This document shows, piece after piece, positions 14,309 through 50,926 of a stretch of DNA of 64,000 nucleotides. Positions within the stretch are counted from its first letter, which is position 1, and each line of letters opens with the position of its first letter. The stretch spans positions 95,666,001-95,730,000 of the forward strand of contig CM068743.1 of assembly GCA_035084275.1 (NCBI GenBank). Direction: 5' to 3'. This DNA is from Hydrolagus colliei (taxonomy: Eukaryota). The translations under genes were made by a program, and so were the position numbers. The notes beneath the pieces were generated by a model. It saw only the letters and a program-made list of their open reading frames with translations. It ran no database searches and was not told the origin of the DNA.

Positions 14309-14362
14309 ATTCCGCCGAAAAAGAAAAGACGTTTTACCAAATCTTTTGGGCCGTTATTTCGC
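14309..14362 (+). CDS. AZIN1 uCC (AUU-initiated conserved uORF), part 1: IPPKKKRRFTKSFGPLFR
   Basis: ATT at 14309 with A at -3; 18 codons to a phase-0 GTAAGT donor; resembles the vertebrate AZIN1 uCC N-terminus. Confidence 0.9.
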
Positions 14363-29606: not shown

Positions 29607-29714
29607 GGCAGAATTTCTGTTTGGGTGTATAACAGCTATCCAGAAGGTCTGGGTGTAACGCTTTACAGAGAGCAGTTCGACTTCAACGCTGAGCCACCTT
29701 GGGACCCTAGCTGA
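29607..29714 (+). CDS. AZIN1 uCC part 2: GRISVWVYNSYPEGLGVTLYREQFDFNAEPPWDPS*
   Basis: Pyrimidine tract plus AG acceptor at 29605-29606; in frame with part 1; YREQFDFNAEPPW motif, stop TGA 29712-29714 followed by TAG. Confidence 0.92.
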   Translation, partial: GRISVWVYNSYPEGLGVTLYREQFDFNAEPPWDPS

Positions 29715-31267: not shown

Positions 31268-31375
31268 ATGAAGGGATTCGTTGGACTAGAAGAAAGCTAC
31301 CCCTTTGACCTTCTGGATGAAGGAACCAATCTTAGCAATGTTATTGACAACCATATTCATGAGCATACACTTTTG
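31268..31375 (+). CDS. AZIN1: AZIN1 coding exon 1 (exon 3 starts 31175): [36 protein letters not shown]
   Basis: Matches AZIN1 N-terminus MKGF...[12 protein letters not shown]; acceptor tttctgcag at 31174; donor GTAAGT. Confidence 0.95.
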
Positions 31376-32819
31376 GTAAGTGTTTTATTGGTTAATAATT
31401 CTTCTGGATATACACTAGTATAGTATGTACCATATTCCCACTGTGAGACACCTGATTGGTAAACAAATTTCATTGGCAGTTGAATTCTGTTTGCCCCTCA
31501 AAATTATTATCAATATGTATTTTATTATGTTCAGTGAATCAGTTACAGTTATAGTTAGTCAGTTATGGTCAATCAGTCATTCAGTTAGTTATAGTTAGTG
31601 AGTCTCAGTAGGCCAGGGCGATACCGTGGCAAATTTTCCTTACTCCACACTCCTGTTAATAATCCCTCAAAATAAACAATGATAATTTGGTCATTTCAAT
31701 CCACGACTGTTTGTGGGACACCGCTGTGCGCAATTGGCTGCCGCGTTTCGCCCACAAATATCCAGTCAATTCACTTTACAATATATTCTGTGAAGCGCTT
31801 TGAGACGTTGATAAGATATGAAAAGCGCTTTAACAAATGCAAGGAGTATTAGTATTTAATTACACAATACTTGCTATGTGATGCCTAAGAGGCCTTAAAA
31901 ATGATATTGAACAACAAAAAGATAATTCGTACAGGAAATTTGCAGAAACCCATCTTTAAAATTAAGGCTGTATTTAAGAAATTACCAAATTCTGAAAACT
32001 CTAAAATACTCCATAATTGAATACATGTAGACCCACGTCTTCTATTATTAGAGGGGTTTTTTACAAAAATTAAAATCTTGCTGACAATGTAATATGTTAC
32101 CAGGTTTAAATTAAACTGACATTTGCTTTTGTTTTAAATGGTGGCATCTTTTAACCCATAAGTATTCAATAAACAATAATTGTTTTAAAAAAACTGATCT
32201 CATGCTCTCAAACTTGCTCTCAAATGTTACTGCTTGAGAGATAATTTAATGCTAATCTAAACGAAGTGTGGGAAGGGGGCATGAATATAAGATGGCCAAT
32301 AGCAGTTACAAAAAGGAGTTTGGGAGAGACTTTTTAGCCAGAAGTTGGTGAGAATGTGGAACTCTGCTGGAAATTGGTTGAAGGAAAAAGCAGTTATAAG
32401 GAAACAGAATACATATATGGAAGAGAGGATTAGTAGGGGTGGAAGCTTATGTGGAGTATAAACACCAGCACAAACTGCAGGCCAAATGGCTTGTTTCTGT
32501 GCTATATCATTCTATATAATACCAAGAGTCCAGACTAATAATATGCTGTGGGTCATTTGTGGCCCACGTCACCCTCACCTGTCCCTCAGGAGACCTGCTA
32601 TTTTAGTGTTCCTGAGACTCCATTCACAGCTTACCAGGAGAGGTGGAGGTGAAAGATGGGACAGAAATCTAAGAAAAAAGTTAGTATTACACCATTCAGT
32701 ATCTGAGCAGGAGTTCCATATTTATTTCCAGGTATGCAGATCTTAAACCTACTTTATGCATACTTGGAACTGGATCTTTTAATTACCTTTCAATATTATA
32801 GAGGCTGGAGCCAGCCAAA

Positions 32820-34500
32820 GGGAGGTGGCAGGTCATGGAGTGGGGAGAAACAAATTCAGAGAGGTAGTGAGGTGCAAGAAAATGAAAAAAATTATAGAGG
32901 AGTGTGAGGATCTTCACGTTGATCCATTCTGTGATCTGGAGCCTGGAGAGGACTGATGTCTAACAAAGTTCAAAATGGACGAGTGTACAGATGGTGGAGT
33001 TTTGAGTTAGATAGTTAGAACTAGGGAGATCAGTGAGGAAGACATTGGAATAATCAAGGCAGGAGGTGAGAAAATCATGATCGAAGGTTTCTGCTGAATT
33101 GGGTGTGAGGTAAGGTCGGGGGTCGACAATGTGATGGCAATAGAGGAAAGTAGTCGATGAGGTATTGGATGTGGGGTAGGAAACACGACTGGGGATCGAA
33201 CTTGGCACCTCGGTTATGCACAGGTTTGGTAAGTCTTAAGGATAGGCCAAGGAGATTGAAGAGGTTAGAGCTGCAGGAGGGAAGACATTAATGGGAGTCT
33301 TCCATCTTGTCAACATTCCACTGCAGGAAGTATGTTCTCATCCAGGCCTTGATGTCTGACAAGCAAGCTGACAGGACATCAGTGGATCTGGAGTCACAAC
33401 TGGTTGAGGAGAAGTAGATTTGAGTGTCATCCGCATGCATGTGGAAGTTGACCCAGTGTCTGCGAATGCCATAGCCAAGAGGGAGCATGTAAATAAGGAA
33501 AAGAAGGGGGCCAAGGATGGAGCCTTGCGGTACGCTGGAGGTGACCGGGTGCAGTGCGGCAGGAAGGAAAAACATTTGCGGAGATGAAGTGATGTCGGTT
33601 GGTTAAGTAGGACTTGAACCAGGCGAGTGAGGCCCCACTGAGATGGATGAGGGAGGAGAGGTGGAGGAGGAGGATGGAGTGATCGACTGTCAAACGGAGC
33701 GGAGAGGTCCAGGAGCAGAAGGAGGCTAAGGGAGCCCTGGTCAAAGGTGCAAACCGCACTAGTGGAGCTCGAATAGGAAAGGGAGTGGAGGGAGAAGTGT
33801 GAGCAACACTTGATTTGCAACAGTGTGTTTCAGCAAGGAACGGCAAATGCAAAATGGGCTAGTACTTGGTGAAGTTGGAGGGATCGACTCTGGGTTTTTT
33901 GAGCTGGGAAAGTGATAACAGCGGTTTTGAGGGGGCATGTGAACAGAAAGCAGCTTTGGCCTGTGAGTAGGGGAGGCAGTAGATACAAAGATGCCTGGCC
34001 ATATATGCAGTGAATAATAGGCCGGTTTTGTGCCATCTAAGCGCATGCATCCGGGTTTGAGAATTAAGATTTAAGCTATTATATCAAGGGTAGTGAGTGG
34101 GTTTGGGTGATTGTTATACCAGGGAAAGTGGGTGGGTTAGGAGACCATCCTAGATCCCGGAAGGTGGGGCAAGAGAAGTGAAGAGTGACAATCATTTTAG
34201 ACTGTCTTCATAGCTGCAGTTGGAGGCCCGTAGGGAGTGGGTTGGGGAATTTATGTGGAGGGTAAGGTTTAGGGAGAAGGGGAGGACAGTGAAATCAGAA
34301 TAGATGGGGGTAAGCGGTAATAAGGTGAATGTTGAAATTGCCCGTTATGAACAGGGGTTCAGCACAGAAGCAAAGGGAAGAGAGGAGATGTTGAGGAAGG
34401 AATAGGTGGTTGGTGTGGGTGATTGGTAGACTAAGGAATTTGAAGAAGAAGGGTGAGGTACTGATCAGATGGGAAGTTGTCAGAGGATTGAGCAAGAGAG
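32820..34500 (-). mobile_element. L2-type LINE fragment
   Basis: LLLLDLSAPFD, VPQGSILGPLLFLIYMLPLG, HADDTQIY, ITGNFNIH. Confidence 0.9.
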
Positions 34501-35743
34501 GTAATGGGAAATAAAGCTATGTTTGGGAAATCTGCATTGCAGCAATTTCCTCTATGGAGCTGGAAACTTCCTGTTGAACCCATTTAGCAATACGATTACC
34601 AGACAATGGTAATTGAAGCTAGGCTAGGGTGTAATGAAATAAATAAGTGTTATAATAATCGTTGCATTTGGCATTAACGCCTTTCATATCAGGACATTTC
34701 AAAGCGCTTTGTAGGCTACAGTGAAACTCACTTAAGTCGTATAGTTGGGACTATAACATTTAATAAGAATTTAAGTTGCAGGCAAACTGTATCCTCCTGA
34801 CATGAACGGCGCTACAAAAGTGATTGTTTAGTATAAAATCCGATTCAATACATAATCAAGACTATGCATAAGAGATTCAATGCAGCCAGTAAATGCATGC
34901 AGCAACAGGTGAACATTATTTCCTGCGATTCAATGCATCTTCACACGTCACTGTATTGCAGTTTACTGGAAAACTTTGGAATTGCATTGGGTTGTGGGAA
35001 ATTAAGTTCTGGGCATGTGGAGATGGAACAATTTTTCTGTTATTGTGGAGTCCTGCAGGTTAAAGCACTTGCCTTACAAGTGGGACACCTGGGTTCAATT
35101 CCAGGCATAGCAAAACCTTGGGCAAGTTTCCTTACTCCACATGCCTAATAGTAATCCCTCCCAAAAAAACAATAATAAATTAGTCATTTCAATCCACAAC
35201 TGTTTGTGGGACACTGCTGTGCGCAATTGGCTGCTGTGTTTTGCCCACATATATACAGTCAGTTCACTTTACAGTATATCGTGTGAAGCGATTTGAGACG
35301 TCTAGAAGATATGAAAAACTTATCAAATGCAAGGATTATTATTATTCAATGCAGATGATAAGTATGGGAGTAATGGAGAGTAGGAGAGCTGTGTTACATG
35401 TTAGAAGGTGCGAATATGACTAGTGCAAATAAATCTAATTCGTTTTGGAAGGAAACTGAATGGGACTTGGGTGAATGTACGACTTAAGTGACTATAAGAT
35501 GAATAAATATAAGACTTCTGCAAGTTTTATTGTAAATTCCAGTAGTGTGCTGTGATTTGCACACAAATAGCCATGGAGTACGTGACAACTTGGGGGAATT
35601 GTTGGTCAGGGCACTGGGATAGATAAACTCTTTTTAAAAAAAAAACCTTGTCTGTTGGTTTGTTTGCTTTATATTTCAAACAAATATAACTTTTCCTCTT
35701 CTCTGCCTTTTCTCTTTGCTCCCCACCCCTCCCCCCACAGCAG

Positions 35744-35917
35744 TCTGAAAGAAATGCCTTCTTTGTTGCTGATCTTGGCAGTGTTGTGAAGCAGAACATT
35801 CGGTGGCAGAATGTGATGACACAAGTTAAACCATTCTATACTGTTAAGTGCAACACTAGTCGAGCTGTAATTGAAGTCCTTGCAGCACTTGGAACTGGCT
35901 TTGCTTGTGGAAACAAG
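35744..35917 (+). CDS. AZIN1: AZIN1 coding exon 2 (NAGNAG acceptor, alternative start 35741)
   Basis: [12 protein letters not shown]...KPFYTVKCN...[13 protein letters not shown]; YTVKCN and GFAC are AZIN1-type (ODC has YAVKCN, GFDC); donor GTGAGA. Confidence 0.95.
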
Positions 35918-36235
35918 GTGAGAATTGCTTTAGTTAATGGAACTTTGATATAATCTAGTGAATGGGATAACAAAGCATGATAGCTGGTGTGAAGCACATA
36001 TGTGCATATGAGTACATAAATTCCTCTTTTTGGCATGCACAGAAAAAGGAGGAAGTGACTGGCACCAACCTGATAACTCAGTTGCTATTTCAGCATGAAC
36101 GTTAGTTGCCACATGGGGCCGTGTGGGCCAACTGTGTACATGTGCAGTGAATGTGGTCCACACTACACCTATGATTTGCTTATAAAGTAAGGTACTATAC
36201 GAATATAATTTTGTTGTATTTTGTCATTGTGGTTA

Positions 36236-36750
36236 ACAACAACAAAATTACATTTGTGTAGCGTCTTTCACGTCAGGAGGGTGTCCCGAGGCGCTGGACA
36301 GTTATTGTTTCGGACCCATGGTGGTGGTGGTGGGGGGAGCAGTTGCCGATGGATCCATCGAAGAGGAAAGTCTTGAGGCGAGGCGGAGGGACTTCGGGAT
36401 GGAGTTCCAGAGGTTGGGGGCAGAGTGGCTGAAGGCTCGCCTGCCAATAGTTGGGCGGGTGGGTCAGGGGACGTGGAGCAGGCCAGAGTCTGCTTAACGG
36501 AGGGGGCGAGTAGGTTGGTAAGGGGATAGGAGGTCACGGATGTAGGGTGGGAGTCAGGAAATGTTGCGGAGGTGGGGGAAGGCAGAGCGAGTCATTGCTT
36601 GGATGTGAGGGGGGAAAGACAGTTGAGGGTCGAACAAGATACCTCGGTTACTGACTGGCTTGGTGAAGTTGAATATGCAATCATGGAGGTTGATGCAGTC
36701 ATCGCCTGATGCAAGAAGGCGCTGATGCGAGCCAATCAGTAGGGCCTTGG
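36236..36750 (-). mobile_element. L2-type LINE 3' fragment
   Basis: Shares the cctgacgtgaaaggcgctatacaaat...(ttg)n 3' end with many copies (e.g. ~860-1050, 6065-6440, 19930-20325, 41760-42270, 48265-48575, 52350-52670, 57400-57720). Confidence 0.8.
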
Positions 36751-37212
36751 GAATCAGTCATCAGACCTCATTTTCTCATACATATTATTGATCTCCAGGA
36801 TGCTATCCTGTGCGGTTAATGGTTAAGGGCGCTGTGAGACGTTGTTGATCTGGATGCAGGAAATATTATCCCAAGTTTATGTGTAATGGTAAATTAGGAG
36901 CACTTGTTAATAGTGACAAAGAGGGCAGGAAGGTACAAGCAGAATTGGACAGATTAGTGGGGTGGAAAATGTAGAAATATCTGAAGTGATGAGTTTTCGG
37001 AGAAAAAATAAAGAACAGAATTGTACGCTTAGTAGTGGAACTCTTAATGAAGTGAAATAATAATAATCGTTAATATTATTTAGAACATTGGGATTCTGGT
37101 GGTGGAAATGCATAGCTTGGTATAAGTTGTCCTAACCCTAAGGATGCTAGTAGCATGTGCAGAGTTTGAAATAAGATGCTTTCTGACCTATTTGTCTCTT
37201 ACGTTTCCATAG

Positions 37213-37385
37213 AATGAAATCGCTGTTGTGCAAAGCTTGGGTGTAGCTTCTGAAAATATTATCTACGCAAACCCATGCAAGCAAGTTTCCCAAATAAAGT
37301 ATGCTGCAAAAAAAGGAGTAAACATCATGAGTTGCGACAATGACGTTGAACTTCTGAAGATTGCACGCAATCATCCAAGCGCCAA
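37213..37385 (+). CDS. AZIN1: AZIN1 coding exon 3
   Basis: [34 protein letters not shown]...KIARNHPSA; AG/GT boundaries, phase consistent. Confidence 0.96.
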
Positions 37386-40300
37386 GTAAGTGTGTAATAC
37401 AACAAGCAGGGTAGATTGCTTCATCGTTAAACATGCGGCTGCAGTCTACTGTCACATTGTTAATGTAAAAGCTGAAATCTTAGATTGTTACCAAAATTGG
37501 CTAGCATTCGTTTTTAAAATTGATTAGTTAAGTTAACATTAAAGTTAACTTTAATGTTAACATTAAAGTTAACATTTAACATTGATTTCCCCTGAAAGTT
37601 GCATGCATGGACTACCTATCATCCTCAACAAGCAATATCACTTAAGGCTTTTCAGGGGAAAAACAGCTGTTGTTAAGAACCTTTGCATTAGGGTACATTT
37701 GTACCAAATTTGTGAATGTTTTAGCTCTCAGTAGGGCAACACTGAAATTATTTGATTACATTGTACAGTTGTTTGGATAGTTTTTTGGATAAAATCTTTT
37801 ATTCCTTTTTGTCAAATATGAATGTCATTTAAAAGGCAGCTTCACCCAAGTAATTTTATAGAAAGGAACCAAGTGAAGGATGCAGCTGCCATGTTCAGGC
37901 AGTTATATTAAGTCCAGAAACAGAAGTGGAGTCTTGGAGTCAAGTGTTAGTTCCAACTCTAAACCTTAAGAACTCCCCTTTCTCTCATTCCTCCCACCTT
38001 TTTATACCTCCAATGTCCCATGTGTCTTTTTTTACTAGTTTGTTCCACTTTAATTATTTGAAAACGAAAAACTCGTTAACTCGCAGAATTTAACACAAGA
38101 ACCACAAAAAAAAGCACTTAACCAACCTATTACCCCTTAAGAAAGGCCAAATGGATTGATATCTTAACAAATGTAACAGACCATCTAGTTCCAAAGACCT
38201 GGGACACTCTCACCACATGAACCCCTTACTACCTCACATTAGTTCATTGTTGCAGAGAGATGGCAAAAGTTTTTAGCTGCTCTTGAGTCTCTTAGCACAG
38301 TGATTACAAAGCTCACTCACTCAGTCCAGTTTCTAATGCTAATTATGAGTGTTTGTTCTCTACAATTGTGATTTGGCATTTTATTTTGGCTGCTTCTCTG
38401 ATTGGATAGGCAGCATTGGTAACAGTTGGTCAACTGTAATGTTACGATAAACATAGGAATTGTTATTAAGGTTTTGATTTGGGCTGGAAGCTTACAATTC
38501 TGTAGCCCTAGTCTTCCCTGTGGGGGTTGCACTTTTTTCTTTTTTCTCCATCTGTTGAAGTGCAGGCCTTATGGAAAATTTGGGACAAGGTAGAATTTTA
38601 ACTGTCGCCTTAGTACCTACACACATTTGTTAGCACAATCTGTGTTTTTCCTCCAATGGCTTTGACCAGCTTCACAAGCCTCAGCTACAATACTTACCTC
38701 TGAGCCAGTTTTCTGTTCATCCCTATGTCAGAATTTTGCATTTGCAGTTTAGGCTGATACTTGCATTACAATGCTGGAGGAGCTTTGTTTTGCAAGAGGT
38801 GTTTTTCATACAAACTGTTCTTCGCATGAGTCTAAGGCAAGGTCCCAATGTTAGAGTCTTGGTCACAATTCAGAAAGTGAAAACAGTTTCTCCCAGTATC
38901 CTTGCCAATAATCCTCCAGATAACAATTGGTTATTCAGTTCATAGCTGTTTGTGGAATATTGCTCTGCATAAATTGGCAGAGGCATTTGCTCACATATCC
39001 AGAATTGCTAGACTTTACAGAAATGGCTATTTATGGAATTTATAGAAATTCCCTGTGAAACATTTTACATTAAGTGTTTTTTAATCATGCAACAAATTAT
39101 GCATTTTAATTGTTAGACCTCTTTGTGAGTTTTGAACATTAGAATGCTGAAAATGCACATCAGCTGTCTGGGCAGACAGCATTTTTCAAAACATTACACT
39201 TTTTATGCTCTTCATAAATTCTTATAAATAAACAAAAACAACTGTTTAACAGTTTGAACTGAGTAGCAGTGTGGCTGATTATCTCTTTTAATTTCGCTGA
39301 AGCTTCACAATAGTGAATTGTACTAATTGTGTTGGTAGCAGCAAAAAGCTCCAATCTGTAGGCTGTGTAGTCTATTTTGTGAGTAGAATTGCAGGCCAAA
39401 CAGGCTGATCTTTGTTTTCAGTGTTGTAATGAAAATGGGATATTTAGATCAAAATAATCCCAAGTGTTTATGAATCTATTTTTATTTATTTAGAATTGTT
39501 TGAACTTTATATTAAAAAGAATGGGAGTTGCTACCCAGGACATCCTTGTACATAGCATATTATTGTACCACCCAAATCTTAATCAGATTTAATCAGGGAC
39601 CAGCATCCCTGGGGATATTTTATAAAAGGATTGGTGACTACCCATGGTATGCAGAGTGGTTCTTCATTTAAAGGGGAGGGCTTTTTTAGGATAAAGTGAT
39701 TTCCTTTTTTTTTCCTAAACCTAGAACTCATTCCTTTTCACTTTCACTGTTTTTGTTTTTTAAAGTTTTAATTTACCTTTTTGTTGTAACTTCTTCCTTG
39801 AGATACAGTGCAGTTTAAAATGACCATTGTATGTTTGTGGTCAAATCTGGAAAATGTGTCTAGATGCGTTTTGCAATAATGTGGGTCAAAATACAATTCT
39901 CTGGAACTTGGTTTGGTTTTATTTCAACTGGCGTTTCATTTTGTTTTATTTACATTGAGCACTCTGTGACAAATTGAATCTAAAACCTCTACCCAAATTG
40001 CAATTAATCACTTTGCTGCTTATAAAATAGACAAGTAATTTTACCCTCTGTACTTAATTTAAACATATCTAAGTGTAGTATTGAATTGCAACTGAGCATA
40101 TTTTCTCTGTTACCTTGAAAACCTGGTGTATGATGTAATAATGTAAAGTAATTTATAGTCCTGCATAAAACATAATCTTGAATGGGAAGTGATTTGTCAG
40201 TTTGTGCTTAGAAGATGCTTTATTAATAATAAATGCAAAAAACACAGAATTATACTTTACTGTGATATATTTTCTAGAAATATACGAAGCAATGGTTTTA

Positions 40301-40734
40301 TTATATCAAAAAAATTAAGTAACATAATTGAAAGCTAAAATGTGTTTTTGTAGCTTGAAATGTCTTAGATTTTTGTGTTAATTGTTGAATAGAAATTATT
40401 TAAATATGCCACAAACTCATTTTAAATATTAGTTCTTTTGTTACAGCACCCAGCCAATTCTTTAATGAAACAACTGAGTCTTGGCTTGCTGCATTGTTCC
40501 CCCCCCCCCCCCCCCCCACTTCCCCCCCCACCCTCCCCACCCCCATGTCCTTTACAATGTATGTAGCTACACATCTAGGCCCTAATCACCAGTTTTCTCT
40601 CCTGTGCAGGATTTGTTTTTTGTTTAGGTTCACATTCAGAGCTTGGAAGCAGGAGATCCTGGCAACGTATTCTTCAGGCTACACATATGATGATGTAAAC
40701 CAACTGTGCCCCAATCATCTTCCCCTTCTCTTAG

Positions 40735-40869
40735 GCTCTTGTTAGACATTGCAACTACTGATTCAAGCACAGAAAATGAGATGAGCATGAAGTTTGGAGC
40801 TACTCTGAAGAACTGCAGACATCTCTTGGAATCTGCTAAAAAGCTAGGGATTCAAGTGGTTGGTGTCAG
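40735..40869 (+). CDS. AZIN1: AZIN1 coding exon 4
   Basis: LLLDIATTD...MSMKFGATLKNCRHLLESAKKLGIQVVGV; AG/GT boundaries. Confidence 0.96.
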
Positions 40870-41097
40870 GTGAGTAGTATGCTTGTCTTTGTACAATGTG
40901 GAGGGTTGCCTCAAGATGAGCATAATGCAAACAGTCTAATCTTGATTGGATGGACTGAATAACCTTATGCTTAATATGCATCTATAATTTAAAAATTCAA
41001 TCTTAAATTAGAGAACAGAGATAGAAAAGAACAAAGCTATCCTGAGATGCTATCCTGCATGACGGGTGCAATATAAACACAGTTGTTATAACATATG

Positions 41098-41412
41098 GAG
41101 TCCTGTAGTTCAGTGGTTAGAGCCACTGCAATCCTTACAAGTGAGACGTGGGTTCAATTCCCGGCAAGGCAAAACTTTGGGCAAGTTTCCTTACTCCACA
41201 TGTCTAATAATAAACCCTCAAAACATAATAATAATAATTTGGTCACACAATTCACGATTGTTTGTGAGATACTGCTGTGTGCAAAATGGCTGCCATGTTT
41301 CACCCACAAATATACAGTCAATTCACTATACAGTATATTCTGTGAAGCAATATATTCTTTGAGACATCTAGAAAACGTGAAAAGTGCTATATCAAATGCA
41401 AGGATTATTACT
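41098..41412 (+). mobile_element. Same SINE family, near full length (20+ copies in window, e.g. 1195-1490, 4436-4760, 8600-8860, 24712-24990, 31620-31855, 35048-35345, 50100-50343, 54316-54597)
   Basis: Same head, core and tail; mutual similarity visible by eye. Confidence 0.88.
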
Positions 41413-43229
41413 ATTAGTTGGTACAGATTGCACTTCCATATCCATTGTTGTATCCCTGAGATGTAACTTCCTCTTTTACTGCTGGTGGTGACCACCCTGA
41501 CGTGGCATTGTGCTCTGCCACCATCAAGTGTCCTAAGACGCTACCCTAGGTGAGGGGCAAATAAATGTTGTTGTAATCAAACTGCCATATGTTTAACAAC
41601 TTGCATTTATATAATGCATTGTAGAAACTGTTACAGCGATTAATTCAAAATTAAGTGAATTTTATGTAGGTAAACGCGAGAACAAGTTTATATCAGTAAC
41701 AACAGTTTGAAAAAAGTTGGTAGTTTCTCCCAGTGTCCTGGTCAGCAATTACAATATAAAATAACATTTGTTAAAGAGTCTTTCACGTCAAGAGGACATC
41801 CTAAGGCGCTGAACAGTCAAAGATTTGGACCCAAGCTGAGTGGAGGGGTGGGATCAGGGAGGGTGACTGAAGGTGCAGTCGTAGGGGAGGGTCTACAAGG
41901 GAGGGAATGAGGCGAAGGAACGGGTGGAGTTCCAAAGGATGGGGGCAGAGAGACTGAAGACCCAATCGCCGCCTGCTGAGCGGATGGAGTGGACAGGTTG
42001 CTATGGATTACAGTGGATAGGTTACTATGCAGATTGCAGAGGTAGGAAAAAAAAGCAAGCTGGGGAAGGCTTTGAAGGTGAGGACGAGGATTTGAAAACT
42101 ATCCTCTGGGAGATGAGGAGTTAGTGGAGTTGAGCGTGGGTGAGGGTGATAGGGTTACGGAGCCTGGTGCGGGAGAGGACACGAGCTGCAGAGTTCTGAA
42201 TGATCTGCAACTTGTGGAAGGAAAGCTGACAAGCAGGGAGTTGGCATATCAAGCCTAGATGTGATAAATTATTAGTAATCTTATGACTGTTTATGGAACT
42301 TTGCTATGCAAATTAGCTACCTTATTTGCCTCCAAATAACATAAATTTTCAGTAAATTCTGTGAAGCATTTGAGACATTTTGTCTCTTCAAAGGAGGATC
42401 AGATAGGCTGAAACCCCAACCAGTGATGGTGTTTTAGTACTAACCCAAACTTTGTTCATCAAAAGTTATAAGCACTATATCACGCTGCAGCAGCTTTTCT
42501 CACTACCTTTCTCACCGCATTTCTCTGCCTATCTGAGTTGTGTGTACTACTGCAGTTAATATATTAAATGATATATGTCTAGCACACTAGAAATATAATT
42601 AGGAGATAGTTTCAGTCAATTGTTCCAGTAAATTACTCAATTAATTATATTAATAATTATGTGTACATGAAAGGCACAAGGCATGCTACCTATTGATTTT
42701 AATGCTGATTGAAATTGTTATTTAAAGTGTTCTGAATTAAATTGTAGACCACAGAAATTCTGCTAGTAACTTGCAGAATGTGTGGCTGACTTGCAGGATC
42801 CCCATTACAAAGCGCTGGCAGTAAGTTGCAGGGTCCCACAGGTTGATTGTCATATATTAATTTCTCCAATTAATTGTGACTAATTTGCTATTGGTGATTT
42901 ACTATTGCAAACCACTGCTTCCCCCTCTTTGTCTAGTGTAGTGGACACTATTGTACTGAAATGATTTAAAATGTAAAAACATGCTGGAAATTAATAGCAG
43001 TTCAATGAAAAGCGGAGAAAAAATAGGTCAACGTTTCAGGGTCATGCCTCTCTACAGGTTCATGTATTGAGTATCTTGCAGTCAATTTCCAGTGTTTGAG
43101 ATGAATTTTCTACTGATGATTTTGCAGTTCCCATGTTGTTATTTTAATCACTTATATATTACAATATATCGATTTGTGAAAGGTGATCATAAAATCTACT
43201 TTTTTCGCCCCAAAAAATCTCTTTACCAG

Positions 43230-43311
43230 GTTTCATGTTTCTACCTTGGCTGGCAGTAGAGAGGCATATTTACATGGCTTGGCGGATGCTCGATGTGTCT
43301 TTGATATGGCT
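43230..43311 (+). CDS. AZIN1: AZIN1 coding exon 5
   Basis: FHVSTLAGSREAYLHGLADARCVFDMA; AG/GT boundaries, 82 nt restores phase 0. Confidence 0.95.
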
Positions 43312-44693
43312 GTGAGTATTCTATTGGTTTCATCAAATCACAGTTACTTTCACAACATCTAGTTAAGAAATAATTATAGGACCACATTATGGTCTTACAA
43401 TAAATCAATTTCTTTAGTTTGCTTGGAAAGCCTGTTTCAGAATTGAATCTTCATATCAGATAAGCTTTACATCAGAGGTTGCTCGCTTCTCGGTATCAAA
43501 ACATACCTCAAAAATCAGACTGCAAATTTTAAATGCTATATTTTCAGAAGATGAATAGACAAGAGTGCCATCTGCTGGTAGGGGTACATGTTTATCATAT
43601 TCAGTTCACTAAAAATATGGATATTTTGCTAAAGGAGGAAAGATAGCTAGTGTTAGAAATCATCACATATGAGCTCCATTAACTCCTTACTTTTGAATTA
43701 TTTTTGGAGACAAAATACCAGGGACCTCATTGTCTGCAGCAATCAAGCACATGTACTGCCTAAGTAGTACAAACATATTTTTTAAAGATTTGTTTTTGAG
43801 GTTTTCTCTTAATTTGAAATGATTTTGTTTTTAATATATTGTTTAATTCTATATTAAGATGAAAAAAGTCACTCAGATAGTTACTGTGCACCCAGCTGTT
43901 GCTTCTGAACTCCTGCCCATTGACCGATCATCCTCAGCTTCTGCCATAATTCCTCACTATTTCAAATCTGTCGTAATTACATCCCCTCCTCAAAAAAAAA
44001 CGACACCAGACTCCCCCAAATTCTCCAGTTACTTCCCCACCTCCAACCTTCCCTACCAATGCAAAGTCCTGGATTCCCAGCTTCACTCTTTCCTCTCCCA
44101 CCAGACCGAGCATGAGTGCAGTCTGTGCAATCTGGGGTTCCACTTTGTCTGCTGCATTCAGACAGCCCTGGTCAAAAAGGTCCCATAAATGATATTATTG
44201 TCTGCCTCTGACCAATTACTCTGCCATCTTAACACTGTTGACCACTCCATCCTTCTTCATTGTTTTTCTCTTGAGGATAAGGAGGCATAGATAATGAGTT
44301 CTGTACAAGCATGAACTGTATAGAACTGTGTTCAGTATTCAGTTAGTTGGTATCTGTGGAACCATACCCAAGTATTTCTGATGCATGCTTTGAGGAGATG
44401 AGGAGAATTCGACAAGGAAAGGGGAATTATATGCACCTAGAGAAAATATAGTACGAACCAGACCATAAAAGTTGAATAAGGAGTCAAAAATATGTGAAGG
44501 CTAATCAGATGCATTATCTGAAAAGATGGACTGAACAGTGGTGCTCTTTCAAATACCACCGTTCAGTTTTTTTCAATGTGTTAAACATAATAATTAATTT
44601 AAGTTGTAGCACCGCTTTTATAAATTAACTATTTAAAACTGGAATTGTGTATAATGCATTCCCAAATCCTGTAGTAATGTCTGTATCTTACAG

Positions 44694-44774
44694 GAAGAGT
44701 TTGGTTTCAACATGAACTTTCTGGACATTGGAGGTGGTTTTTCTGGGACAGATTGTGAATTACAACTTGAAAAG
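44694..44774 (+). CDS. AZIN1: AZIN1 coding exon 6
   Basis: EEFGFNMNFLDIGGGFSGTDCELQLEK containing the LDIGGGF PLP-phosphate loop; donor AAG|GTAGGA. Confidence 0.95.
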
Positions 44775-44793
44775 GTAGGAGAGAGCCCTTATA

Positions 44794-45618
44794 CAGGTAG
44801 ACCCCGCTTACCAAACTCCCGGTTACCGAAACTTCACTATAACGAGGGTTTCTATTTGTATCACTTCTCCGCTTAACAAAGGCTGCTTTCGCTATAACAA
44901 AGTTTACACACACTTTAAATCTCGTGGGCTTCTCGTGCGCAGCTTCTCATGTGCAGCTTGCCTCAGCAACGCACACTCAGTCTTTAGCGTCCCTCAGTTA
45001 AGCTGTGCAGTGCAGCCCCTCCCATATGGGAGGAGCTTAAGCGGCAGGATGCTTTGTGGCTTCAATAATAGTAAGTCGAGATGGGGTGGGGGGAATAGAG
45101 AGATGGGAGGGAATAGAGAGATGGGAGGGAATAGAGAGATGGGAGGGAGGATAGAGAGGGGGGTGGGATAGAGAGGGAGGGGAGGGGGATAGAAAGGGAG
45201 GGGATGGGGGATAGAGAGGAGGGGGTTGGATAGAGATAGAGAGGAGAGCGGGATAGAGAGGAAGGGGAGGGTGGGATAGGGAGGTGTGGGGGGGAAGAAA
45301 GAAGCGCATCACGTGCCTGGAAATGCCAATATTTCAGTGCAGTGACTGTGCAGACTTGGCCTGGAGCAAGTAGGATTGGCTTTTTTATTCCTGCAATTTT
45401 TGTCACATTCCGGATTCAGGAACTCCGGACTTTTGGCTGCTCTGAAAATGTTAGCGCTAGGAACTGCTAGGAACTAAACTGATTTTAGTGGGGAGGGTCG
45501 GGGCGACGTTTTGGCTGCGGCCAAATGCAGTAATACAGTTAAACTCTCGCTTAACTAAATTTTCTCTTAACGAGGGATTTTAAAGTCTCGAACCCCATTG
45601 TTAAGCGGGGTCTACCTG
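44794..45618. mobile_element. Tigger/pogo-like non-autonomous DNA transposon with internal GA-rich repeat
   Basis: Perfect 17-bp TIR CAGGTAGACCCCGCTTA / TAAGCGGGGTCTACCTG, TA on both sides. Confidence 0.88.
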
Positions 45619-46201
45619 TACTTCCAATATTTAAGTAAATACGTTCTTCGGGTGGGAGTATGGATTCTTATGAATGTTTCTCCCTCTGCCCTCCACCCCC
45701 AGCTCGTGTCCAGTATACTGTGTCCAGCAACTTAATTAATTAATAAACAAACAAACAAAATGAATGAATGTTTTTATTTAGCCTGCCACAGAACAATCAG
45801 ATGCTATCAATCTCAATTGTGGTGTCATGGTCAAATAAGCAAACAATAAATGTCTTTACGGGTGTGGTGTGGGGGAAAATGGACTACTTTAGTGCAGTTG
45901 ATGGTAATAGCACAGGCCTGAGCGTGTTATGAGTGCGCAGAATGGGAAAGAACAATGGAGCATTTTTTTAGATATGAAAAATAAATGTTATTATATGAAA
46001 AATCACTTAAATTATTTGCATATAAACCAAATGTTTATTTTTAAAACGTGTCACTGTTTTCCTTTGTAAGTGGTAACTGATTTTAAAAAATTTAATTAAT
46101 GACAGGTGGTTTTATTTTAAATTCTATATAATACACGTGTGTGCCTATGATCAATACGGTTTGATGCTGAATTCAGTTGTTATTTTTGTCTCCAATTCTA
46201 G

Positions 46202-46367
46202 GTTTATGATGCCATCAGTCCACTCCTTGATATTTACTTTCCTCCTGAAAGTGGTATTAAAATCATTGCTGAGCCTGGGAGCTACTATGTGAATTCTGCC
46301 TTCACTCTGGCAGTAAACATTGTAGCCAAGAAGGTTGTTGCAAGAGACTCTCAAGATCAGTCTGGAG
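46202..46367 (+). CDS. AZIN1: AZIN1 coding exon 7
   Basis: [44 protein letters not shown]; EPGS is AZIN1-type (ODC EPGR). Confidence 0.96.
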
Positions 46368-47972
46368 GTAATCCCATGTGTTTCAGTTATATTATCTTGA
46401 ATTCATTAATGTTAATGAATTAACTTGTTGTTCTAACGCTGTTCTCTATTTAATACCATAACAATTAAATTTAATCACCGATTGCAGTGAATCTGGTGTT
46501 TTTAAGGCTTTTTAAAGTTCTGTCTGAAGGTTATTCAAATTTATGGAAAGGGTGCAATATAGAGGTTCATGAATCTGATACTGAAAATAAAAGAATACAG
46601 CCATGAGGAGCAGCTGGTAGGGGAGTGTGGGAGGGGTGGGTTAGGCCTCTTTCCATTGAACCAGAGAAGATTGATAGGTGTTTATAAGTTAAAGAAACTG
46701 TCAGAGAATTAATTCTTTACACTGTAAGGGAATTTGAGAACAAGAGGCCATAAAATCAAGACTGTAACAAAGGGACTAACATGAGAGCTTGTCGCAGAGG
46801 ATTATCGGAATATGGAATGCTTTGCAGGAGCTGACTATCAAATCAGTTAATTGGAGGCATTTAATAAAGATTTGGACAAGCACATGCTGTGAAAGAGAAT
46901 TAGATAAAGCAGGGAATTGGGATTAGTGTGGAGTGGTAGATTGAGTGGAAATTAAAGCACATTTTTGGAGCCTCTGACAAAATAAAGTTAGTGATGTGCC
47001 TCAGAGATTGAAGGGAGAAATAGCTATTGATATTAAATGTGCTGGACACAGGATTAAATAAAATAATATCCAAATGTTTGGATTGCTAACTCCCAACTCA
47101 TGCACGCCATGTGGAACCTTGAAGATTTTGCTCAAATCTTCGACTGTGGTTTGATGTTGATCCACAGGCTCTCAACAAGTCTGTCAAACCCTACCACCTC
47201 CAATCCTCTAGCCCCATATCTCCCTCCCATTTTGGATGCCCACTAAGTCTTTGTAAATGGTTTTGAGACGTTTATTCCCATGTGAAAGGCAGTATAGAAG
47301 TGTAGATTGCTGTTAAATTAGAAGGTGTTAACAATTACATGATGTGACAAAGAATATAGGATAATAGACATTAACACTTTTAATTAAATTAGTTGGTGAT
47401 TCCAACACAAAAAGTTAAAAGATTTGAATAATTTAAGATTGCAACTAAGGAATTTGGGATTTTTTTCTTTCCAAGGGTAATCAGTCATAGAATCATCGCC
47501 GGGTGGTTTTGGAAGCAAAGGACGGGTGTTGATCTGGGAATTGGAATTAGAGTGGTTGGCTTCATTTGTGGAATTGAACTCTAATGGTTTAATGGCCTCC
47601 AGCTGTGCTGTACATTTGTATGGTTGTGCAGTGCCTCAGCAATGTATCGTTACAAACTACTTGCTGCATCAGTTTCCTCACCTGTTTCCTTCCATCCTGG
47701 TAGCTTCCATGAGTGAAATTGACAGGTTGTCGATAGGTTTATGCAGTTGCTTCAACCAACAAACAACTGGAGTGGGACTGATGGAAAAACCTTTTAATCC
47801 TTAAGGCTGTCAAAAAGAGACAAGTCCATCATTTGGATTTGAATCCAGCTGCCAATCACCTGGCCACCCAGTTCTCCAATAATTTGCTTTCTGTTATAAT
47901 ATTGATTAGAAAGTGATGAATAAAGTTCTGAAAATAATCCAGGCCAAATGTGATGTCCTTGATCTTTTACAG

Positions 47973-48091
47973 TGGTTGAGTCCACCATGAACGATGAACC
48001 ATTCTTCATCTATTACATAAGTGATGGTGTTTATGGGTCTTTTGCGAACAATTTGTATGGAACTATGAGTGCCATTCCAATTCTTCACAAG
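47973..48091 (+). CDS. AZIN1: AZIN1 coding exon 8
   Basis: NDEPFFIYYISDGVYGSFANNLYG...LHK; AG/GT boundaries. Confidence 0.95.
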
Positions 48092-48909
48092 GTGAGATTG
48101 CTACAGTGGAAAGAGCAATAATGTAGAGTCATGTAGCGTATTGGTTAAAGAATGCTCCTTGCAAATGAGAGGACATAGGTTTGTGAGACACTGTTATGCG
48201 CAATTGGCAATTGACAATTCACCTTGTGCATTGAGAAGTCTTGAAGACATGATGAGGTGCTACAACAAAAACAAATTACATTTATAGAGCGCCTTTTACA
48301 TCAGGAGGACATCCCAAGGCACTGAAGAGTCAGGTCAGGACCCAAGCAAGGGAGAGAGGCAGGGTAGAGGAGTGGGGCGGAGAGAGTTGGGAGGGCAGCA
48401 GAAGGCACGGTCGAAGAGGAGGGTCTTGACACCGGCCTTGAAAGAGTTGAGAGAGGGAGCGAAGCGAAGGGACTGTGGGATGGAGTTCCAGAGTGTGGGG
48501 GCAGGGAGGCTGAAAGCCCGGCTGCCGATGGTAGGGCGGGGGACATGGAGCAGGCCAGAGCCTGCTGAACGGAGGTCTACATCAAATGCAAGGATTATTA
48601 TTATGATATGAACTTCATTAAGCTGTCTGAAGTCACCAAATAAAATTGAGTTTTATACAAAGGATTAATTATAATTTTGTAAATCTGAACTGGTGTTGGA
48701 CTGACTGTTTATAGCAAAGGTAATTCGAGATTAAAAATGTCAAGCTCATCAGTTTGGTGAGTGGATGATACGTGTTGCTTTAGGAAGAGAAAATAAATAA
48801 TCCAATCTCAACTCATTTAGATTTGAAATCTGGAGTGCAATTACAGATCGTGGCTCTTCGTGAATTAATTATAATTGTCGTGAGCAAACAGCCACATTCA
48901 CCTATGAAG

Positions 48910-49652
48910 TAGGGTCCGGCGATATATCGGTTATATCCGATATAATTTTCATATCGATAATCCGATATAGGCATTTTCAAAATATCGATATATCGGAAAA
49001 AGTCGATATCCAAAAATCGGAATGTGCGCACACTCGACTACAAGACCCAGAATGCTCATCTCTATACACAATGCACAGACCAAGGTGCAAGCCGCCATAT
49101 TGTATTCATAGTCCTCGAATACAATATACAGGTATACAAGGGGGGGGGGGGGGGGGAGAGAGGGACGGAGGGGTGGGGGGAGAGAGGGACGGAGGGGTAG
49201 GGGGAGAGAGGGACGGAGGGGTGGGGGGGAGAGACGGGGGGCAGAGAGGGACGGCGAGGGGGTAGGGGGAGAGAGGGACGGCGGTGGGGAGGGGGAGGGA
49301 CGGCGGCGGGGGATGTGGGGGGAGAGAAGGACGGCGGGGGGTGGGGGGAGAGAAGGACGGCGGGGGGGTACGGACGGGTGGGGGAAGATGGGGTGGATGT
49401 GATAATATACAGACAGACAGACAGACAGAGAGATGGGGGGATGTGAGAGAGGAGAGAGACACAGACAGAAAAACACAGAGATGGAGAGAATGAGTGTGAG
49501 AGACACACAGAGAGAGAGATATTTACCTCCTGAGGAGATAGGCCCCGAATGCGCGTGCATGCGCAGTACGAAAACCCCGAAAATATCAGTATATCTCGAT
49601 ATGAGCCCATCAATGTATCTAAATCGGAAAATTTCCATATCGACGGACCCTA
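48910..49652. mobile_element. hAT-type MITE, same ends as 26912-27286, different G-rich interior
   Basis: TIR TAGGGTCCG / CGGACCCTA, 8-bp TSD CTATGAAG/CTACGAAG. Confidence 0.88.
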
Positions 49653-49875
49653 CTACGAAGTACACAGACTCATCACGTAACAGTAAATCCAGTGAAGCGG
49701 TTTTAAGACATCGTCCTGACATAATAGGGGCGAGATCAAATGCAAGGAGTATTTGAGATATTCTGTGATACAAATTTAACAGCAGTGAACATCTGTTGTC
49801 TTTATCTCTTAAATAAAATGTGAGATGCTGCAGCAGAATTATCCTTCCTGATCATCTTGTTTTCGTCTTGTTTAG

Positions 49876-50087
49876 AACCCTAACTCAGAGGGACCTGTAT
49901 TTGGCAGCAGCCTGTGGGGCCCCTCCTTTGATGGACTTGATCAAGTTGTAGAGCACTGTCTCCTGCCCGAACTAAGTGTTGGTGATTGGGTCATCTTTGA
50001 AAACATGGGAGCATACACCTTAGAGCAGTCTGCGTTCAGCGAGTTCCAGAGTCCCCCAGTGTATTGTGTGATGTCGATCAATGATTG
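49876..50087 (+). CDS. AZIN1: AZIN1 coding exon 9
   Basis: [38 protein letters not shown]...; donor TG|GTAAGT. Confidence 0.96.
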
Positions 50088-50796
50088 GTAAGTGATGAGT
50101 TCCCGGCAGGGTGAAACCTTGGGCAAGTTTCCTTAGTCCACACGGCTAATAATAATCCCTCCCAAAAAATAGCAATAATAATTTGGTCGCTCACTTCACA
50201 ACTGTTGGTGGAACACAGCTATGTACAAATGGCTGCCGCTTTTCGCCGACAAATATACTCACTTTACAGTATACTCTGAAGTGCTTTGAGACATCTAGAA
50301 GAAGTGAAAAGCACTATATCAAATGCACAGATTATTATTATTATCTGCTTCCCATGTGCCAGCTGACTTTCACTTTATTGGATTGTTACTGATGTCACTT
50401 CGTTGCTGTATATACACAAAGCAGGAAATTATGCTTTGAGTGACCAAACACGTCAGAAGTTGGCCATTTTAGCTTCAGCGTTTAAACTACCAACTTCGAG
50501 ATCACCAGGTTTCCCATAACATCAATTTCTACTTTGTTCAAATGCACCAAACAGGAAGGGATATTGGTGGTGACCTAATGATCCTGAAATCTCTCATTTT
50601 TCTTTTGACCTCACATTTCCCAGAAAAACAATACAGGCCTGAATCAGCCTGACTGTGCGCAATGAAACTAGCTGTTGTTTGTATCTGTTATATCAGTAGA
50701 ATTTTATGGATAATGAGGTTCCACTGTATCACAAAACTAAGCAGAAAATCTACATTTATTCATTCTGTTTAATGGACTTTTGTTTTTTTGTCTCAG

Positions 50797-50926
50797 GTTT
50801 TCAATGCAGGAAGTTGGATTAACCTTGGACACATCTGTGAAGAATTTCTCTTGTGTGCCTTCTTGCTTCCAGCTGAGACAGGAACAAAATTTTTCTGCTG
50901 CTGGTTTGTCTGGCATCAGTGCTTAA
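50797..50926 (+). CDS. AZIN1: AZIN1 last coding exon
   Basis: FSMQEVGLTLDTSVKNFSCVPSCFQLRQEQNFSAAGLSGISA*; resembles AZIN1 C-terminus (KNFFFVPSCIQL); TAA 50924-50926; joined CDS 1380 nt. Confidence 0.92.

Follow-up and report, generated by a model that had tools for sequence, protein, structure and literature searches.

Highly conserved AS-NMD elements are present in the genes of SR proteins and other splicing factors, and polyamines favour the productive form of SAT1/SSAT, the opposite sign to AZIN1. The closest described system is that of mouse Azin1, for which a splice variant attributed to Murakami et al. in 2014, 'Azin1-X', is said to contain a 5'-extended exon 7 with a PTC, to be a target of NMD and, reportedly, to be regulated by polyamines. 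The available part of PMC3446288, which also mentions autoregulation by AS-NMD, places mouse Azin1 among the genes with PTC+ junctions that are up in both Upf2-null tissues, at the level of the gene and without coordinates. SAT1/SSAT is, like AZIN1, a polyamine-pathway gene tuned by unproductive splicing and NMD (Hyvonen et al. 2006, as cited in PMC7846877, in its accessible text), but it encodes a catabolic enzyme and is controlled through a cassette exon rather than through competing 3' splice sites. Detained introns, as presented in the accessible part of PMC4281565, resemble the case described here in that an intron both exceeds its neighbour in abundance in RNA and is better conserved, and two are listed in mouse Azin1; they are, however, nuclear and are not NMD substrates. 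Polyamines themselves act on splicing via the U2 SF3 complex, the reader of branch points (PMC12999471, in the portions available), and AZIN1 is absent from the main text and the examined supplements of that paper.

There was no AZIN1 row in the available supplement text of PMC8233366, PMC8361881 and PMC10123112, the AZIN1 row in the accessible supplement of PMC7470949 concerns a different junction, and the available portions of PMC10762828, PMC13420535, PMC11202255 and bioRxiv 10.1101/2023.11.09.566426 contain nothing on the exon 3-4 junction. The human variant SV2 was considered as a counterpart and set aside; the accessible parts of reviews link it to a SNP in exon 12. The reviews searched, in their available parts, offered no explanation of how polyamines steer Azin1 splicing, and a literature search that left out most subscription papers returned no report of conservation of the intron 3 element.

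Here, we describe the end of coding intron 3 of AZIN1 in a chimaera. This type of event is already known in mouse, and the gain lies in depth and anatomy rather than in a new class. The gene is the same as that of the mouse PTC variant, and the predicted chimaera products of 152-197 aa fit the second-hand description of that variant in the accessible part of PMC4458265; the length given there fits the exon 3 junction, the best fit being a 40678-type or a retained form (coordinates below). By contrast, what shark-type contigs display is an extended piece of the intron. Judged by this analogy, the chimaera element probably belongs to the mouse Azin1 PTC event, its exon extension being a putative homologue of the mouse extension, and would be the cartilaginous-fish counterpart of the known feedback. 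As in the AS-NMD elements of splicing-factor genes, the intron exceeds the neighbouring coding exons in conservation, the reading frame is lost and stops are present in several frames. However, AZIN1 is a metabolic regulator that does not bind RNA and cannot autoregulate via its own RNA, and its blocks, ~95% conserved, are missing from the teleost loci examined.

The AZIN1 gene and its 5' uORF

The window, a stretch of 64,000 nt of genomic DNA, carries AZIN1 on the plus strand as ten coding exons, from 31268 to 50926, with GT-AG at every border. The resulting model of 460 aa is 98.0% identical to antizyme inhibitor 1 of Callorhinchus milii, and identities of 83% with shark AZIN1, 64% with primate AZIN1, 49-52% with ODC1 and 46% with an AZIN2-like protein were obtained. 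Orthology with AZIN1, as opposed to ODC1 or AZIN2, is indicated by these identities, by a search of solved structures (PDB) with exon 3, in which the best matches were AZIN1, and by a uORF containing PPW. By its sequence, the source of the window is a holocephalan, kin of C. milii but distinct from that species. Residue 365 (~49924, coding exon 9), which we take to correspond to the catalytic cysteine of ODC, is Phe in the window (WGPSFDG) and Cys in C. milii (WGPSCDG); the same site is occupied by Leu in the teleost locus L002 and by Ser in the coelacanth protein P0013, indicating drift in several AZIN1 lineages. The acceptor of coding exon 2 is a tandem CAGCAG (35738-35743), with which Gln36 is included or omitted.

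The AUU-initiated uORF is intact over its 53 codons and is split by a 15-kb intron into a first part at 14309-14362 (plus strand), ending at a GTAAGT donor, and a second part at 29607-29714 (plus strand), ending in ...PPWDPS-stop. In AZIN1, polyamines are known to be sensed at translation by an AUU-initiated uORF of ~50 codons (PMC4458265, in the part available), and its presence in two 5' exons therefore indicates that the first, translational, layer of feedback exists in chimaera AZIN1.

Anatomy and strength of the acceptors at the end of intron 3

Four public runs (X1, X11, X16 and X20) were compared with positions 37235-40984 of the window at 80% likeness. Among the runs that the run search returned, none is recorded as RNA and 14 are RNA by guess. 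Coding exon 3 (37213-37385; this and all the features described below are on the plus strand) ends at the donor AA/GTAAGT, and its canonical joint with coding exon 4 (40735-40869), 37385-40735, was found as a contig joint in X1 and in 19 raw-read joints of X20. Beyond the donor, the codons read AAG-TAA, with an in-frame TAA at 37387-37389, and retention of intron 3 would yield a product of 152-153 aa. The last ~300 nt of the intron may constitute a conserved non-coding splicing switch and can be divided into conserved blocks and spacers. Block 0 (40435-40463) contains candidate acceptors with exon starts at 40447 and 40454, the first of which is in frame, meets a stop at 40463 and lies upstream of a poly-C run. 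This run forms a spacer (40499-40545), a repeat that was skipped in read mapping. Block 1 (40547-40618) carries GCTACACAT at 40566, CCTAAT at 40581-40586, a pyrimidine tract and an AG at 40608-40609; the tract, TTTTCTCTCCTGTGCAG, ends at 40609 and is followed by the start at 40610, with the branch A (40585) at -25. A variable spacer (40619-40670), replaced by 69 non-aligning letters in a shark-type organism (organism B, below), carries the weak 40628 acceptor. Block 2 (40671-40727) carries the AG at 40676-40677 (start 40678), a second GCTACACAT, TGA-TGA at 40688-40693 and a TAA at 40696, and also contains the tract of the productive acceptor and its non-consensus branch motif CCCCAAT (40709-40715).

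The 9-mer GCTACACAT is thus present in one copy per conserved block (40566-40574 and 40678-40686), the two copies being 112 nt apart, and the pair is a candidate protein-binding site or a candidate remnant of an old acceptor duplication. A tandem duplication of the acceptor obtained a score of 25, against 12-18.5 at the other eight acceptors, a score that comes mostly from the one 9-mer and makes duplication suggestive only.

Joining at 40610 or 40628 would add extensions of 125 or 107 nt, respectively, shift the frame and lead to the out-of-frame TAG at 40743-40745, 124 nt ahead of the junction at 40869, whereas the 57-nt extension starting at 40678 is in frame and meets TGA-TGA at 40688, 179 nt ahead of the same junction. 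The truncated products from 40610, 40628 and 40678 would be 196, 190 and 155 aa long without Gln36 and 197, 191 and 156 aa long with this residue. The initial annotation had described this stretch as an extension of exon 4 with three upstream acceptors, all giving premature stops. Its coordinates are all right (CCTAAT at 40581, starts at 40610, 40628 and 40678, canonical acceptor at 40735, donor at 37385), as are its stops, namely TAG 40743 at 124 nt before the junction and TGA-TGA at 40688 with a product of ~155 aa, and the sequence that it called unique (40575-40745) is indeed single-copy within the window. Of the 14 AGs in the interval 40440-40734 it named three, and it missed block 0, with its candidate acceptor at 40447. 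The premature stops, although correctly identified, are uninformative, because a stop or a frameshift followed all 84 of the 84 AGs in the 200 nt that precede each of the nine coding acceptors, with early stops for all 31 in-frame cases. Likewise, the position of the stops more than 50 nt before a later junction (124 and 179 nt) is a property of nearly any upstream AG.

Acceptor strength was estimated with a rough score, the weights of which are approximate and taken from general knowledge, against a background of the 1,318 intronic AGs of AZIN1. Only four of these AGs, itself included, equalled or exceeded the score of 40610 (top 0.3%), which was the only one of the four with a CTRAY branch motif (-15 to -45) and scored above six of the nine true AZIN1 coding acceptors. 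The sites at 40447, 40678 and 40628 ranked 13th, 31st and 82nd, respectively, among the 1,318 AGs, and chance accounts for the ranks of the last two. The productive acceptor at 40735 has a strong tract and no CTRAY, the nearest motif being CCCCAAT at 40709; CTRAY was found at just two of the nine true acceptors, so its absence at 40735 is not unusual on its own. In terms of sequence, the anatomy is that of one strong site (40610), one moderate site (40678) and one weak, unremarkable site (40628), and the notion of three equivalent acceptors was not supported, 40628 being weak and located in a part of the intron for which organism B gave no alignment. The block 1 acceptor (start 40610) is the main candidate for a competing acceptor.

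Constraint in cartilaginous fishes and fate of the intron

Run X1 (organism A) is of chimaera type, with exons 95-98% identical to those of the window, and run X11 (organism B) is of shark type, judging by letters of exons 4 and 5 that resemble shark proteins. The chimaera-shark split dates from about 400 million years ago. The contig of organism A differed from 40547-40764, a piece including 30 exon bases, at 2 of 218 positions, without gaps, versus 142 of 1,328 positions (10.7%), plus gaps, for five other intron pieces (Fisher p 5e-8) and 11 of 286 for two exons (p 0.05), counts that refer to the listed pieces only and ignore gaps. In organism B, there were three differences in each block (3/72 at 40547-40618, 3/57 at 40671-40727 and 3/29 at 40435-40463), against 27 of 152 in exon 3 and 12 of 101 in exon 4. 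Blocks 1 and 2 together (6/129, 95% identical) were more conserved than the exons (39/253, 85% identical; p 0.001), with the reservation that the blocks were picked by alignment, which inflates their identity, and that 209 difference rows are not itemized, so that the counts do not speak to the invariance of the AGs themselves. In the rest of the 3,349-nt intron, only block 0 and a 38-nt repeat match aligned in organism B. Conservation of the intronic element above both the intron background and the coding exons was found in both organisms.

The conserved letters correspond to splice signals (branch motif, tract and AGs) and not to a reading frame. The 52 nt between blocks 1 and 2 are replaced by 69 in organism B, so that the 40610 extension measures 139 nt instead of 125 and lies in another frame; the 40678 extension remains in frame, at 54 nt. 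The 44-aa frameshifted tail gave no word match and three weak HMMER matches (E 3e-5 to 3e-4), each consisting of 5-6 matched stretches, and the one examined, P0153, was a repetitive ORF; a conserved tail peptide was rejected, given that the tail had no AZIN1-type homologue. The change of frame and the tail without a homologue together imply that the constraint is not protein-coding. The comparison argues for a genuine non-coding element of splice control, ancient and concentrated on the splice signals; the end of intron 3 is probably an old switch by which some transcripts are diverted into dead-end forms, as reported for mouse. A search of Rfam with the element gave no matches at the gathering score and none at E values up to 1, and the folding of 40547-40760 was no more stable than that of shuffled sequences (z = +1.65). 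An intronic snoRNA, suggested by a RUGAUGA-like motif at 40687, was rejected, with no support from Rfam.

No joint to 40610, 40628, 40678 or 40447 was found in the four runs. All 19 joints listed for X20 (unassembled reads from a closely related organism; ~27% of the run, 404 reads) were 37385-40735, with a listing threshold of three reads and two joints dropped at the poly-C repeat, giving a 95% upper bound of 15-27% on the use of alternative joints, a weak negative. Depth in X20 was 0.94 over 40610-40734, within the range of the other intron bins, and 30.7 in the exon. Coverage holes in this region mean nothing, because the DNA run X16 had no depth at 40360-40734 even though the index credits it with 0.61 of the words. 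In X1, the contig covering the element had a depth of 12.6, as against 693 for exon 4 (1.8%) and 5-9 for the other intron contigs (a ratio of 1.4-2.5), and may be mostly precursor or DNA. Overall, intron 3 stood at ~1-3% of exon depth in X1 and X20. A high-copy repeat fragment in intron 3 (38860-38984) attracted most of the mapped records.

Run X11 contained an abundant intron contig of 1,233 nt with a depth of 118, the exon contigs having depths of 407 and 568 (21-29%); X1 and X11 are RNA by guess, expression is poorly reflected by contig depth, and assembly drops rare junctions. This contig is unbroken across 40610, 40628 and 40678 and reaches 925 nt past block 0, which fits retention, or an acceptor farther upstream, better than use of the proximal sites. 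The contig of exon 3 stops a single base beyond the donor, that of exon 4 begins right at the acceptor, and the latter exon continues into exon 5 without a break. From these contig ends, we infer a second abundant path confined to intron 3.

We favour, as rather probable, a switch operating by competition from an upstream site, yielding both extended-exon and intron-containing RNAs and tuned by polyamines as in mouse. The upstream 3' splice site (branch 40585, tract and AG 40609) would rival the productive site at 40735, with the weaker 40678 between the two and a non-consensus branch motif at the productive site. Spliceosomes pulled upstream would join exon 3 to 40610 or 40678, giving a 5'-extended exon 4, or would remove the intron with delay; RNAs of this kind, in which the stop always precedes a later junction by more than 50 nt, would be subject to NMD or nuclear holding, and less full-length AZIN1 would result. 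High polyamine levels would, by analogy with mouse, favour the dead-end forms, as a negative feedback on top of the uORF. It is also possible, though doubtful, that the element enforces the retention (detention) of intron 3 or directs splicing to an acceptor lying over 1.2 kb upstream, with the nearby AGs serving as decoys that bind U2AF/U2 and are never joined; the output would again be unproductive, owing to the TAA at the donor, and control would be exerted by nuclear holding. The depth and continuity of the X11 contig over the three starts are as expected from retention, X20 is without an alternative joint, and the end of the X11 exon 3 contig appears to fit a continuation with GT or GA and not with a 40678-type GCT alone. 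Two detained introns, at most candidate counterparts of intron 3, are listed for mouse Azin1 in the accessible part of PMC4281565, but the detained intron of human AZIN1 probably maps to another intron. Furthermore, contigs lose rare paths and NMD substrates are scarce at steady state, the RNA status of X11 is a guess, and the low intron depth in X1 and X20 argues against heavy retention as a general feature. Competition from an upstream site and retention or a distant acceptor, taken together, make a role in unproductive splicing highly likely.

Explanations unrelated to unproductive splicing fared less well. Cartilaginous fishes evolve slowly and have retained many conserved non-coding elements, the constraint covers more bases than the core splice signals require, and no upstream junction was seen, all of which would suit a DNA-level element (an enhancer) or a site bound by protein for purposes other than selecting a splice site. 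We nevertheless consider this improbable, as the blocks, read on the sense strand, fall on a branch motif, a tract and an AG and adjoin a real acceptor, the alternative RNA paths of X11 are located at exactly intron 3, and a PTC splice variant of mouse is reported at a compatible position (PMC4458265, in the part available). Retention of the extension to encode a functional truncated AZIN1, of 156 or 197 aa, is very improbable: the 40610 frame is not conserved and its 44-aa tail has no homologue, the stops lie 124-179 nt before the junction, past the 50-nt rule, and most of the conserved letters are outside any open frame, although the 40678 extension, which keeps its frame in organism B (54 nt), could specify a conserved product of ~155 aa, a 156-aa truncation exists among database proteins (P0123, below), and a truncated human variant, SV2, is described second-hand, in the text available, as polyamine-independent. 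The least probable reading is that the AGs are cryptic and arose by chance in an intron that evolves slowly; for blocks 1 and 2 this is already largely refuted by a block identity exceeding that of the coding exons in both comparisons, with the rest of the intron ~89% identical where aligned (organism A) or not aligning (organism B); the stop rule satisfied by 84 of 84 AGs, the unremarkable 40628 and the lack of an upstream junction are what chance would predict.

With the blocks conserved over the chimaera-shark split, the control sequence is likely to be confined to ~130-160 nt in which the two branch points differ in a defined way, making the mechanism testable by minigene. If the competition switch is real, AZIN1 had both translational and splicing feedback early in vertebrate history.

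Counterparts in other vertebrates

A locus scan of metagenome contigs yielded four loci, three of which were teleost azin1 (L001-L003), the fourth being a spurious GC-rich locus. The orthologous teleost introns are short and AT-rich (~200 nt in L001, ~360 nt in L003 and, for L002, the last 204 nt), and the element matched those of L001, L002 and L003 no better than shuffled sequences (137, 62 and 150 of 300, respectively). Scans of viral contigs and prokaryote genomes gave no AZIN1 loci, and none of the three scans yielded a tetrapod intron. The early jawed-vertebrate origin put forward in the initial annotation went beyond these data, with conservation found within cartilaginous fishes only and the blocks lacking from all three teleost azin1 loci; sequence comparison establishes the age of the element for cartilaginous fishes only. 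Its interpretation of the stretch as a poison extension is partly supported. It is rather unlikely that the twin blocks are the cis-element of a polyamine-sensitive choice of 3' splice site that was already present in the ancestor of jawed vertebrates, survives in cartilaginous fishes and tetrapods and disappeared from teleosts, with the branch-point contrast being read by polyamine-dependent U2 SF3; were this the case, AZIN1 would be a dedicated, ancient read-out of the polyamine-dependent SF3 mechanism.

A protein search for short isoforms gave 36 matches, mostly fragments, genomic single-exon calls or ODC/AZIN2. One of these, P0123, is 156 aa long and 82% identical to frog AZIN1; it is spliced through exon 3 and ends in a non-canonical tail of 6 aa, which hints at an alternative continuation at the exon 3 junction in amphibians, although the tail may be a contig-end artefact. 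Another, P0125, jumps to the last exon. In the window, in L001 (~900) and in L003 (~2047), exon 3 ends at the donor AA/GTAAGT, with an in-frame TAA directly after a Lys codon, so retention would truncate the protein at the same residue in all three. Coding exons 4 and 5 are fused in the teleost azin1a-type loci L001 and L002, whereas L003 and the window have the intron.
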